Positions 1-4,906 of a stretch of DNA of 4,906 nucleotides are shown one piece after another. Made by a program: the position numbers. Source of the stretch: a virus. Its lineage: Duplodnaviria > Heunggongvirae > Uroviricota > Caudoviricetes. How positions within the stretch are numbered: position 1 is the first letter of the stretch; every line of letters begins with the position of its first letter. The DNA lies in IMG/VR virus record IMGVR_UViG_2541047439_000021; one strand, given 5' to 3'.

Positions 1-3000
1 TCATCCACGGCAGTGGCACCACACGTCAAACATTCGTTTCACAACTTCACGGCAGTAGAAGCCGTCGACATCACGGGTCAGGTCGTAGCGATTGCCGAAT
101 GTCTTGCGAACCCAGAACTCAAAAGCCGTATGCATGTATCACCTCCGTTGCATTGCGCGTAATTTTTTCAGGCGCATTTCCTGCTCAGTGCCCGCCAGAA
201 TTTTGCGGTACTCCTGTTGGTCAATATGTTCGAACAGGTTGTTGAACTCACCAATGCGTACCCGTCCGGAGCGCCCGTCCATGCGTCGAAAGAACACTGA
301 GTGCTGAGTACTGCGAGTAATCACCACAGGGTATCCGGCTCTGTCCGTGTATATCTGACCACGTTGAATCAGAGCGAACATTCCTTTATCCCCAGCGGAA
401 AAGCGAATACAGAATAAATGCCACCGCTATTGCAACTCCAACTGCGGTGAATGCTTCAGGCCAATTCATCATTTCACCTCCTGCGGCGGCTCCGGTAGCG
501 GCATCCAGTGGGTTACTTTCGATGCCGGTTCTTCCCCATTGTCAGTAACTGCCCACCATTTGTTTCTCGAACAATCGTAATACCCTTCGAAGGTATCGCA
601 CTCAGTCCAGCCGTAAGACTTCCCCCAACACCAAACATACTGTTTATCGTTCGGCATTCGCTCACTACAGCTTATCCAACCATCCGGAGTTACCGGAGAG
701 TTGCCAGCCTTGCGCATGGCAATCTCCATGATTTCAACCATATCTCCTGGTGGAATTTTACAATGCTGACCAATATGCCTCTGCTGCCTGGCATATTCGA
801 GGATGTGCTCCAGCTTGATACGATTAATCATGATTTATCTCCCTGAAGCATGGCTTCGCGGCAGTCGTTCCAGCCTTCAGCATAATCACTATACGCAAGA
901 GGCCAACCGTTTCTGTATTCACGCGGCAACTTATCAGGCACTACCAGCGCTGGCGGCGCGGAGAATAGTGGTTTAGGTGATATTTCCGCACGTTTTGCGT
1001 ATGCTTCAACTGTGTCAGGGTTAAACAGGATTATGTTTTCACCGCATTCCCACGCTATCGGTTCTGCTTCCAGCGATGCCAGTGCAATTTCATAAGCACG
1101 GCGCTCAATATTGTCTCGAACGTCCAAGCTGCCTATGCGCTCTTTGATTTCTTTAATCAGTTCTTTGTCGGTAATAGTGGTCATGCCGCGTTTCCTTCTT
1201 TCTTATTAACAATTACACCGTCATATATTTCATTAAGGTGCCCTCTCAACTCCATGCGCCTTAATGCAGACAACATGTAATCGCATTCAACCTGCTTATT
1301 TCCAGTAAATGGCTTATCGTCAGGATTACCCCAACAGCAATTACCCTTGGGCCACCCATGTACTTTCCGTACTCTTCCGTTAACAACGTGAAGTAATCCC
1401 CAGCCAGGTGGTAAATCCTCAATTGAAATAATTCCCGGCTCACTAATAAAGAATCGCCAGTCGCCCATTCCAAGAGACGGATTTTTACGAAAACGCTTTT
1501 TTCTATCTGCCAACAAGTCAGCACGAGAACATTTCGCCAATCAGGCATGATGCTGAATTTCTGAATCCCATAGCATCTGGCTGTTCTCCGGTACTGGTTA
1601 CAGCTATAAAGCGGTCATGAAAACAAACCTTGAAACCGTTGCGCTTAAGGAACTTGTACGCAATCTGACAGAGTTCGCGGTGTGTTAACGCCATATCACT
1701 CTCCTTTGATGCGAATGCCAGCAAGCCAGTTTCTTATGCCGATATATTCAGCGTTCCTGAAACCGCTTTTTACATATATAAATGGCAAGCGAAGATTGTG
1801 ACCATTGACTGCCAGGTAGTCTTTACAACCCTGTTCGGTGAAACAGCAGGTAACGAATTCATCAATATCTTTCACAGCAACGCGCCGCCATTTTTCTGGT
1901 GGCTCTCGAAAGTTTTCATGAAGTAGCTCGAGACGACGACTATGGCGTTTATTGGCTTCATTGCCATCTTCGTCAACCCAGACAATCCGGTCATGGTCAT
2001 AATCAGCATCAACAGCGATTTCGCGCTTTTGATACACACAAAACATGGGATCTGACGTTATTCGATTGTCCTGTGTTCGAATATTTTCACCGATGATGCC
2101 AAACGAATCTGGTGCAGATTTTGTCTGCATCTCTTCGATACGTTCAGCCATCGCAGCACACTCTTCAAAGTTGCTTAATGCTTTTCGCTCCCATTCGGCG
2201 CATTGTTTTTCCAGTTCTGCTATGCGCTTACTTCCATCCGCGATTACTCCCTCGTAATATTCACGCTGCTCGTTGAGTTTTGATTTTGCTGCTTCAAGCT
2301 CAACACGCAGCTTCCCAACCGTAAGCGCAATCTCCTCGTTCTCCTGGTCGCGGCGTTTGATGTATTGCTGGTTTCTTTCCCGTTCATCCAGAAGCGCCAG
2401 CGCAACATTTGGATTAAAGGCAGCAATAAATTCAGCGTTTGCATAAGCCTGAACATCTGTTTCAACCAGGCAGTTAACATGACATTCCGCAATCACACCA
2501 CCGGGTTCTCCTTTCCATTTTTGGCAAACAAAAACTCCTGTTAAATTGCCGTGCTGGTTAACAGATGTATGCCCTACGATGTAGCTTCCTTTAGTTGCTT
2601 TCTCTGCCTTTTCACGCAGTGCCTGATAGTCAATCTTGCTCATTTTTCTCTTCACTCCGGTATACAAGGATTACTACGCCCCCTCTGCTAATTGCGCGAG
2701 CTGGATCCCCTGGTTCCATGCCGTCAATACCGAAGGCTTCGAAAAATGCATCTATTGCCTTTTGGCGTTGCTCCTGCTTACGGCGTTTATTCCATTTTTT
2801 CATGAACAACAGTGACAGCCATCGTCCGCTGCAGAACATGATGTAGAAATAACCAAGGAGCGCTAGGCCGGTGTTCAGGGCTGTATCGATCGTTATCGTG
2901 GTGTTGATGTTCACTTCACACCTCTCTGTTTGTTGATAAGTTCAATATCCTGCTGGCAACTGGCGCAAGCTCTGCATCCACGAACAGCCAGGCGTCGCCG

Positions 3001-4906
3001 CTCATCTATCGGATCGCCACACTCGCAACAATGAGTAGCAGATGGGGCATTACTATCGGATTTGTATTTTTGCAGGGAGAGATTGCGCTGCAATTCTTCG
3101 ATTTCAGCGGCGTTGTCGATGATATCTGCCATTTTCCTTTCCTTCAGGCATGAAAAAAGGAGCCGAAGCTCCTTTGGTTTTAGAATTCGAATTGCCTTGC
3201 CCGCAGGCTTTTCAGCATTGGTCTGGCCCGCTGAACTACGAAACTCGACTGGTCAAGCCGTGCCGCCTCTCTCAGTAGCACATCTCTGTTCTTCGTCACC
3301 ATGTAGATGGTCTCAAACGCAATGTCATACAGCTTGTTCGTGTATGAGGAGTTCAGCTCTTTCATGATCGGATACAGGTGTTTGCTGAGGTCCTGGGCTT
3401 TTTCCATCCAGAGTTGCATGTAGCAGAGGAGGATGATTTCCTCGTCTGTGAATTGTTGCTGTGGTTCTGCTTGTGCCGACTGCATGTTGCGAAGTTTCTT
3501 TTCGCACTCGATGAAGTATCTGCGTATCTGTCGGCCTTTTTCGTTACGCTCTACCATCGCCGTTTCTTTGGCTGTATCGAGGGTAAGGTGGTAGTCTTTT
3601 TTCCCTCGCCCATAACCTATTTCCCGTTTCTGGGAAATAGCTATATAGTCCTGATTTTCAACGAATCCGTACTCTTCAATACGTTCTGTAATCCACGATG
3701 CAAAGCGTTTACCTACTCCAAGAAAAGTATGTAAATCACGGGCATTAACGAGAAGAGTGGTTTCGTTGGCGATAGTGCCGTTGAATACGGGGATGCGTTG
3801 ACTGGTCATGATGACCTCCTTATTTGTTTAGTTTATAACCGCCAGTTAGTAGCTGGCGGTCGGGTGTCAACTGAGCCAAATAAGAAGCTCTGGGCATATT
3901 CCCCTTGCGGGTGTTGTATTACGCCTCTCCACCCGACCTTTGTACGGATGTAACTATGCCAAATTGCAGGCATAAAAAAGCCGCAAAGCTATCGGGTGCG
4001 GAGACCGCTTATTTGTTCAGTGCGGTCAGTATGCGATAGCTCTGGAGGATTTGTCAATCAGCGGAATATTGATGAACGGGTAACGGTAAATGCCTCATCC
4101 AGAAAATTAACGCAAATTCGCATCGCAAACTTGCGTTAATTATCTGAAATATCAAGTTAAATCCCCTTAAATGTTTGGGGCACTATTGGGGCAAAATGTG
4201 GTTGTTTGGGGCACTATTGGGGCAAAATGTGGTTGTTTGGGGCATATTTGGGGCAAAAAAGAACGTATAAAGAACGGTGTAAAATTGATTTCTTCATGGT
4301 CAAAATGAGGTGTAACAGATTGAAAAATATATGCTCTTGGACGATCTTCGGTAATTCTGTGTTTTTAATGCTTCATGGTTTCAATATGTCCGTACATGGA
4401 ATAATAAAGCACCAGAACTTTAGCCATTTCTAACCACTCCTCGTGTTATCTCTATTCCGTAGCGATTCGCTACCACTTATTTAAAGATAAGACGTCCTTT
4501 TCAGAGTGCAAATTTCACAACCACTTATTTGATTTATAACAACTTTCACAAGCACGCAATTTTGTCGCAAAATGACACATTTTTATCTCATCGCGTTTTT
4601 TTAATCATAAGAGCGGCTTATGGATAATTATTGGAGATGATATCTATTCTCGCTAAGAAGCTGTTGCAGGATATTACCAAACGCGGGTAGAAACACGTCA
4701 GTTCACTAAGCTTAGTCCCACGTAGCGAAAATATGGCAGCCGCCATACGCCGCGTTAATTCTAGCAATATGATGTCTATACCCAGACGGAGGTCAGTAAT
4801 GGCAAACCATCGAGGCGGTTCCGGCAATTTTGCAGAAGACCGCGAAAGAGCATCAGAAGCAGGTAAAAAAGGTGGCAAGAGCAGTCACGGCAAAAGCGAC
4901 AACTAG

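Follow-up and report, generated by a model that had tools for sequence, protein, structure and literature searches.

The 4,906 nucleotides (nt) analysed here, referred to as the window, come from the IMG/VR virus record IMGVR_UViG_2541047439_000021 and include one end of a 933W/Sp5-like lambdoid prophage of the Shiga-toxin type, which is integrated in wrbA. Four minus-strand genes form a block at this end, coding in order of transcription for an antirepressor (Ant), a small TraR-like protein, a DUF4752 protein and an Ea22-like protein, and the same block is found at the prophage edge both in wrbA and in other integration sites. The TraR-like gene lies at positions 2911..3132, stop codon included, and very probably encodes a TraR-type regulator of RNA polymerase (RNAP) that is a close paralog of lambda Orf73. 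The original prediction had placed a phage-borne TraR/DksA-like, lambda Orf73-like zinc-finger protein at exactly these coordinates, with no strand given. The strand is minus, and both the observation and its interpretation proved right, with one refinement supported by the present analysis: the gene is a second, att-distal Orf73 paralog, not the copy of the exo-xis region.

Family assignment, functional residues and predicted fold

The open reading frame (ORF) runs from ATG to TGA and specifies 73 amino acids (aa), MADIIDNAAEIEELQRNLSLQKYKSDSNAPSATHCCECGDPIDERRRLAVRGCRACASCQQDIELINKQRGVK. A Shine-Dalgarno sequence, AAGGA, is read directly 5′ of the gene, 7 nt before the ATG, within the region AAGGAAAGGA (3135..3144, minus strand). 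The cysteines of the product follow the pattern C35-x2-C38-x17-C56-x2-C59; two additional ones, C36 and C53, are also present in lambda Orf73. Membership of the DksA/TraR C4 zinc-finger superfamily (Pfam PF01258, zf-dskA_traR) is established both by these CxxC-x17-CxxC ligands and by the hidden Markov model score, 31.8 bits over residues 33-64 (E 1.5e-7), which is above the gathering score of 24.9. The protein also matches PHROG 54, ‘DksA-like zinc-finger protein’, over residues 1-71 (E 5e-24). Its alignment with lambda Orf73 is full-length and without gaps, with 52/73 identical residues (71%) and 86% positives. These three results, together with the Shine-Dalgarno sequence and a ratio of nonsynonymous to synonymous substitution rates (dN/dS) of 0.12-0.15, show that 2911..3132 is a genuine gene and not a chance ORF.

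The residues on which TraR-type proteins depend are retained. The N-terminal DxxDxA motif reads M-A-D3-I-I-D6-N-A8; E44, R46 and R47 are the counterparts of TraR E46, R48 and R49, and E64 is kept along with the four zinc ligands (C35, C38, C56, C59). Conservation was evaluated in an alignment of 96 diverse TraR-sized sequences, in which the window protein, lambda Orf73 and F-plasmid TraR were joined by 93 homologs retrieved from 1.8 billion representative proteins. At the N-terminal tip, D3 is shared by 85/96 sequences, D6 by 94/96 and A8 by 91/96. The zinc ligands are nearly invariant (C35 and C38 in 96/96, C56 and C59 in 95/96), and the other well-conserved positions are I42 (93/96), R46 (96/96), R47 (85/96), G52 (89/96) and E64 (87/96). 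The window protein matches the whole of this set, from D3 through E64, and alignment with F TraR and lambda Orf73 likewise shows the acidic tip (D3, D6, A8) and the four cysteine ligands in place. Its main departure from the consensus is D43, at a position where 76/96 sequences have a proline and lambda Orf73 also has an aspartate; at the site of TraR K50, both the window protein and lambda Orf73 have a leucine (L48). As far as can be read from the sequence, the size and architecture, the DxxDxA motif and the E/R/R contacts are those of a short RNAP regulator of the TraR type, a group of proteins of about 70-75 aa to which TraR, lambda Orf73, P2 Orf82 and others belong.

An AlphaFold2 model, built on a 36-sequence alignment, has a mean predicted local distance difference test score (pLDDT) of 74.8, rising to 86-89 in the zinc domain and where the C-terminal helix begins. 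Helices are predicted at residues 6-25, 44-49 and 57-70, which corresponds to the TraR-like succession of helix, zinc knuckle and helix, with a single N-terminal helix and no coiled coil. When this model was compared with the PDB by Foldseek, the 12 best matches were all TraR, DksA, DksA2, YbiI or Dks proteins, the first being TraR bound to RNAP (6n57_M, probability 1.00, TM 0.54). A profile search of the PDB, with a family profile made from 36 close homologs that did not include TraR, similarly ranked the TraR chains 5w1s_M and 6n57_M first (E 2.4e-9, residues 6-69). The Pfam match, the 71% identity to lambda Orf73, the retained motifs and these TraR-first profile and fold matches all support the TraR/DksA-like, lambda Orf73-like identity that had been proposed.

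How such a protein would work can be outlined by analogy, since the interaction of TraR with RNAP has been described by cryo-electron microscopy and lambda Orf73 has been studied biochemically; it is on these two sources that we infer RNAP binding and promoter effects for the window protein. In the TraR–RNAP structures, the N-terminal helix (residues 2-27) extends to the active site, the beta′ rim helices carry the globular zinc domain (28-57), whose E46, R49 and K50 touch beta′Si3, and the C-terminal helix (58-73) rests on beta lobe-Si1 (PMC6970531). By correspondence, the N-terminal helix of the window protein would enter the RNAP secondary channel and bring D3 and D6 of DxxDxA beside the active-site region. 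The zinc-bound globular domain (C35, C38, C56, C59) would lie on the beta′ rim helices via R46 and reach beta′Si3 via E44 and R47, and the C-terminal helix would touch beta lobe-Si1 with E64. The resulting change in RNAP conformation would inhibit promoters with short-lived open complexes, such as those of rRNA and ribosomal-protein genes. This inhibition would require neither DNA binding nor ppGpp, and would divert host resources to the phage.

The experimental background for this scheme is solid for the relatives. TraR and five homologs including lambda Orf73 bind RNAP at the DksA site and inhibit rRNA and ribosomal-protein promoters independently of ppGpp (PMC9239242). Competition with DksA for RNAP has been shown for lambda Orf73, which inhibits rrnB P1 with an IC50 (half-maximal inhibitory concentration) of ~50 nM without ppGpp, and rpsT P2 as well (PMC9239242). 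The DxxDxA requirement has been demonstrated in both TraR and lambda Orf73, D3 and D6 being needed for the activity of the latter (PMC9239242). In vivo, lambda Orf73 expressed from pL lowers rRNA and rpsT transcription and slows host growth, and the phage yield (burst size) after induction is raised ~4-fold with it (PMC9239242). It hardly activates the promoters tested, possibly owing to its two extra cysteines (PMC9239242).

Several points nevertheless weigh against assigning a TraR-type function to the window protein. The structure model is of moderate confidence only and the Foldseek E-values are weak (8.5e-3), which is explained by the shortness of the query (73 residues). TraR P45, whose substitution weakens RNAP binding, is replaced by D43, as it also is in lambda Orf73, and residues 17-31 differ almost wholly from those of lambda Orf73, with a proportion of nonsynonymous differences (pN) of 0.58. 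Having six cysteines like lambda Orf73, the window protein may by analogy inhibit transcription but not activate it. The RNAP biochemistry concerns lambda Orf73, 71% identical, and not the window paralog, for which family membership, motif conservation, predicted fold, purifying selection and gene order are the direct observations. For the proposed expression route, the weak point is a sigma70 consensus scan that returned 3 sites against 4.0 expected, which is not above chance. Finally, the TIGR02419 model (NCBIfam C4_traR_proteo, TraR subfamily) is matched full-length (positions 3-64, E 5e-14) with a score of 52.6 bits, under the cut-off of 59.7. Among the controls, F TraR passes with 80.5, and both lambda Orf73 (54.7) and 933W L0141 (56.6) fail. 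This cut-off is therefore uninformative with regard to function, because the functionally validated lambda Orf73 falls below it too, and the failure was for this reason rejected as an argument against membership.

The same low TIGR02419 score could be invoked in favour of a zinc finger of DksA/TraR fold with a function unrelated to RNAP, which would bind another protein or a nucleic acid. The model for such a protein would be YbiI, an uncharacterised E. coli protein, which was the best match (2kgo, E 6e-5) in a single-sequence search of PDB sequences, ahead of F TraR (E 1.5e-3). The YbiI match is however restricted to the zinc-finger part (residues 30-65), whereas TraR aligned over residues 2-62, or 6-69 by profile. 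A YbiI-like identity was rejected since the profile and fold searches both rank TraR first near full length. The window protein retains an intact DxxDxA motif, on which the activity of TraR and Orf73 depends, and lambda Orf73, a proven RNAP-binding inhibitor, lies below the TIGR02419 cut-off in the same way. A non-RNAP function of this kind thus appears extremely improbable, and the TraR-type assignment is retained.

Selection, distribution and prophage position

The dN/dS values were obtained from Nei-Gojobori counts against the lambda-type orf73 genes of lambda, 933W and Sp15. The constraint is strong over residues 1-16 and 32-73, where pN is 0.08-0.11 and the proportion of synonymous differences (pS) 0.50-0.83. 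In contrast, residues 17-31 are near saturation (pN ~0.6); they cover the linker and the outer portion of the N-terminal helix, a segment that is variable family-wide. In the window, this segment (3040-3084, minus strand) reads NLSLQKYKSDSNAPS where lambda-type genes have NTAIKMRRLNHQAIS, with both flanks strongly conserved. Conceivably, this divergence could adjust how tightly the protein binds RNAP, or which promoters it affects, in comparison with the canonical copy.

The identical protein is found on at least 1000 contigs, under the names ‘TraR/DksA family transcriptional regulator’ or ‘phage/conjugal plasmid C-4 type zinc finger TraR family protein’. Identical copies occur in published Stx-phage records and in E. 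coli O157:H7 Xuzhou21 (WP_000763353.1), and 175/5426 complete E. coli genomes carry the gene at 90% nucleotide identity or more. Two Orf73 sequences, orf73 and L0141, are attributed to 933W in a 2021 review of exo-xis proteins (PMC8614690). Earlier work thus covers the family and its mechanism, this exact protein is already annotated, a second copy is known from 933W-type phages, and no new biology is claimed here.

The presence of two orf73 copies in 933W-type phages (PMC8614690) raises the question of a functionless att-distal duplicate, a passenger heading to pseudogene in a lineage that already has the canonical exo-xis orf73. The decayed or mosaic neighbours described below (the gene broken by a frameshift at 1184-1724 and the recombination joint within ea22) and the terminator-like hairpin directly upstream of the gene would fit such a fate. 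However, the ORF is intact with its Shine-Dalgarno sequence and keeps all family-invariant residues, and its dN/dS is ~0.14. Copies in prophages at other integration sites (L007, L009) show 2-3 changes, all of them synonymous. This purifying selection and the exclusively synonymous changes argue against a decaying duplicate, as does the conservation of an identical protein over so many contigs, and this fate is considered highly unlikely.

The TraR-like gene also differs from its lambda counterpart in its position relative to the attachment site. The prophage/host boundary, attR, falls inside the 5′ end of wrbA, with its core at about 4378..4384; the alignment to 933W stops at the attR core annotated there, and the attachment site of VT2-Sakai coincides with it. 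Of wrbA, the first 18 codons (ATG at 4426) are retained and lead into the attR core; the frame at 4364-4426 (minus strand) reads MAKVLVLYYSMYGHIETM, then KH and a stop. Further out, ymdF occupies 4799-4906 (plus strand) in a short form of 35 aa, MANHRGGSGNFAEDRERASEAGKKGGKSSHGKSDN, which is also the form in the O157:H7 Xuzhou21 annotation. Between the attR core and ant, the phage arm spans about 570 nt. This arm contains three tandem 31-nt repeats, TGTTTGGGGCACTATTGGGGCAAAATGTGGT, at 4172-4264 (two of them identical, the third at 71%), together with a 22-nt inverted repeat at 4100-4146 (86% complementary), which could be arm-type binding sites for Int or sites for other proteins. At 3850-3938 (minus strand), a structured RNA of the Rfam family RF02221 (sRNA-Xcc1) was detected over the full model length at 69.1 bits, above the gathering score of 53 (E 1.5e-11). 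This family is associated with integrons and mobile elements, and is found here in the 5′ leader of the antirepressor gene (ant start at 3809).

The block itself begins inside attR with ant (3180..3809, minus strand; AntA E 3.7e-27, P22_AR_C E 6e-9, PHROG 377 E 1.4e-97), followed by the TraR-like gene. The DUF4752 gene comes next (2630..2914, minus strand, Pfam DUF4752 E 1.7e-39). At the junction, its GTG start overlaps the TGA stop of the TraR-like gene as GTGA, which suggests translational coupling between the two. The Ead/Ea22-like gene (1696..2643, minus strand, ATG at 2643; Pfam Ead_Ea22 E 2.2e-41) overlaps the end of the DUF4752 gene by 14 nt, and the same DUF4752/Ea22-like arrangement is given in the RefSeq annotation of Xuzhou21. 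Small lambdoid minus-strand ORFs with DUF551 and DUF4222 domains extend beyond it. At 1184-1724 (minus strand), two adjacent ORFs of 68 aa (1521-1724) and 119 aa (1184-1540) align with successive stretches of the same PHROG families, phrog_9263 (positions 60-113 and 113-230) and phrog_631; they appear to be a single gene interrupted by a frameshift near 1520-1540.

The window is a mosaic. Its positions 1-2645 are 99.7% identical to the exo-xis region of VT1-Sakai (Sp15), position 1 lying ~20 nt from xis, and positions 2287-4906 match the right end of the Xuzhou21 Sp5-type prophage at 99.0% identity. The joint lies where the two matches overlap, at 2287-2645, within the 5′ portion that the ea22 genes have in common, and points to homologous recombination between paralogs of ea22. 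Among complete E. coli genomes, none has at least 80% of the window in one place, and only 8 cover at least 80% of positions 1600-3900.

The lambda order orf60a-orf63-orf61-orf73-ea22, characteristic of the exo-xis position, was not found around the window gene, which follows ant at the attR end. A lambda-type orf73 is separately present in the exo-xis block of 933W and Sp15, so the window gene is a paralog and not a positional ortholog. Judging from gene arrangement, attP of 933W-type phages has an orf73/ea22 module on either side, and it is the att-distal module that is present in the window. In 933W, int and xis are located at attL, on the strand that also carries the block, so that the order in the circular genome is pL, N, exo, orf60a/63/61, canonical orf73, ea22, xis, int, attP, ant and the window-type gene.

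The neighbourhood, with a membrane protein next to the TraR-like gene, had been likened to lambda orf73-ea22 and taken to suggest a conserved host-takeover module. This holds in that an Ea22-like gene lies downstream as in lambda, but a DUF4752 gene is interposed and the module is the second, paralogous one at attR, outside the exo-xis region. The putative membrane protein is the DUF4752 product, in which a single segment, LLGYFYIMFCSGRWLSLLF, is only moderately hydrophobic (Kyte-Doolittle mean of 1.36 for the best 19 residues) and precedes a basic stretch. Its gene (window 2646-2910) is an insertion relative to 933W, and because it is absent from the equivalent 933W module it does not belong to a conserved module. 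The idea of host takeover would apply, by analogy, to the Orf73-type component, the only one with a tested function, demonstrated for the lambda protein.

Upstream hairpin and possible expression routes

Between the ant stop and the start of the TraR-like gene, a terminator-like hairpin, AAAGGAGC-UUCG-GCUCCUUU, followed by a U run, occupies positions 3153..3175 (minus strand). It was missed by a simple terminator scanner and established by folding (-11.5 kcal/mol, z = -3.87, with 1/200 shuffles folding as well). In lambda, a GGAGC/GCUCC hairpin followed by U6 lies ~45 nt upstream of orf73 (L001 3669-3692, minus strand, z = -3.5), and the two hairpins have this GGAGC/GCUCC core in common. A search of the literature for a name of the lambda hairpin, for example tL3, gave nothing usable. 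By its fold and U run, the hairpin at 3153..3175 is inferred to act as a terminator. A promoter belonging to the TraR-like gene itself was considered and rejected, the sigma70 scan being at chance and no space being available between the hairpin and the ATG.

The expression route is probably N-dependent and driven by pL, as judged from gene order and the hairpin: the latter precedes the gene as in lambda, and the block is severed from pL when the prophage is integrated. Transcription from pL, antiterminated by N, would read through int and attP into the window gene after circularisation or on infection. The gene would then be the distal part of the early leftward operon, expressed only after excision or on infection.

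The severing of the integrated gene from pL can also be read in another way, with the same biochemistry serving a different physiology. The protein would then have a role in the lysogen or in the lysis-lysogeny decision, being either pro-lysogenic or expressed from host or ant promoters in the integrated state. The wrbA 5′ remnant points into the prophage, toward ant and the TraR-like gene, and because the wrbA promoter region is intact upstream, its transcription could enter the prophage. A combined terminator scan and folding revealed no convincing terminator between wrbA′ and ant, and a sigma70-like site lies upstream of ant at 4057-4028, in a scan which overall is not above chance. The role of lambda orf73 is itself unsettled in the literature: it is classed as pro-lysogenic by deletion studies (PMC8614690), in conflict with the pro-lytic role described elsewhere (PMC9239242). 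On the other side, the hairpin and U run between ant and the TraR-like gene should stop transcripts that are not antiterminated, and the promoter-like site is no better than chance. Read-through from wrbA was judged unlikely as the main expression route, given the strong hairpin directly before the gene. A role in the lysogen is on balance unlikely, and pL-driven expression is the route preferred here.

A further proposal is that the att-distal paralog is regulated differently from the exo-xis copy, as an excision-gated host-shutoff factor or as a lysogenic-conversion factor; this is distinctly doubtful. If the former were true, a host-shutoff factor would be made from pL only after genome circularisation. 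If the latter were true, low-level expression from host or ant-proximal promoters, for instance in stationary phase, would impose a ppGpp-independent, stringent-like transcription state in Shiga-toxin-producing lysogens. More generally, TraR/Orf73-type proteins are a means by which phages and plasmids impose a ppGpp-free shutdown of ribosome synthesis resembling the stringent response. In a prophage of the Shiga-toxin type, changes in burst size or host physiology at induction could affect toxin output.

Comparison with lambda Orf73, TraR, DksA and 933W L0141

Lambda Orf73 is very similar to the window protein: both have 73 aa, the identical DxxDxA tip, the six-cysteine pattern (C35, C36, C38, C53, C56, C59), the ExxRL motif and a similar C-terminal helix, and an Ea22-family gene follows on the same strand. 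Apart from residues 17-31, the differences are in the setting. Lambda orf73 stands between orf61 and ea22 in the exo-xis region and overlaps ea22 directly by GTGA, whereas the window gene is located beyond attP, after an antirepressor gene, and has the DUF4752 gene interposed. The canonical orf73 has no coding sequence annotation in the RefSeq records of lambda (NC_001416, L001 3393-3614, minus strand) and 933W (NC_000924, L004 4873-5094, minus strand), where intact 73-aa ORFs are present.

F-plasmid TraR (PDB 5W1S, 6N57) has the same length, an N-terminal DxxDxA helix, a C4 zinc domain with the E/R/R residues and a C-terminal helix. Although it ranks first among both the structural and the profile matches of the window protein, it is only ~31% identical to it. 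It has four cysteines instead of six, P45 instead of D43 and K50 instead of L48; it is encoded in the conjugative tra operon and both activates and inhibits promoters. DksA belongs to the common zinc-finger family, binds RNAP at the secondary-channel site expected for the window protein and also has an acidic DxxDxA tip, but it is a ~151-aa protein with the tip on a coiled coil, and it requires ppGpp for full activity.

The closest counterparts are found in the related prophages. Sakai Sp5 H0159 and 933W L0141 are in the att-distal position after ant, like the window gene, and the Sp5/Xuzhou21 copy is identical to it in both DNA and protein. L0141 (ST933Wp79, ‘DksA-like zinc-finger protein’) is 92% identical to the window protein. 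Its residues 1-50 are the same, and its C-terminal third is of the lambda type (Q51, T55, E61, L63, S67, S72). This pattern of N-terminal two thirds of window type joined to a lambda-type C-terminal third indicates, at the level of sequence comparison, intragenic recombination. 933W also differs in that the DUF4752 gene is not present, and L0141 there overlaps the ea22-like gene directly.

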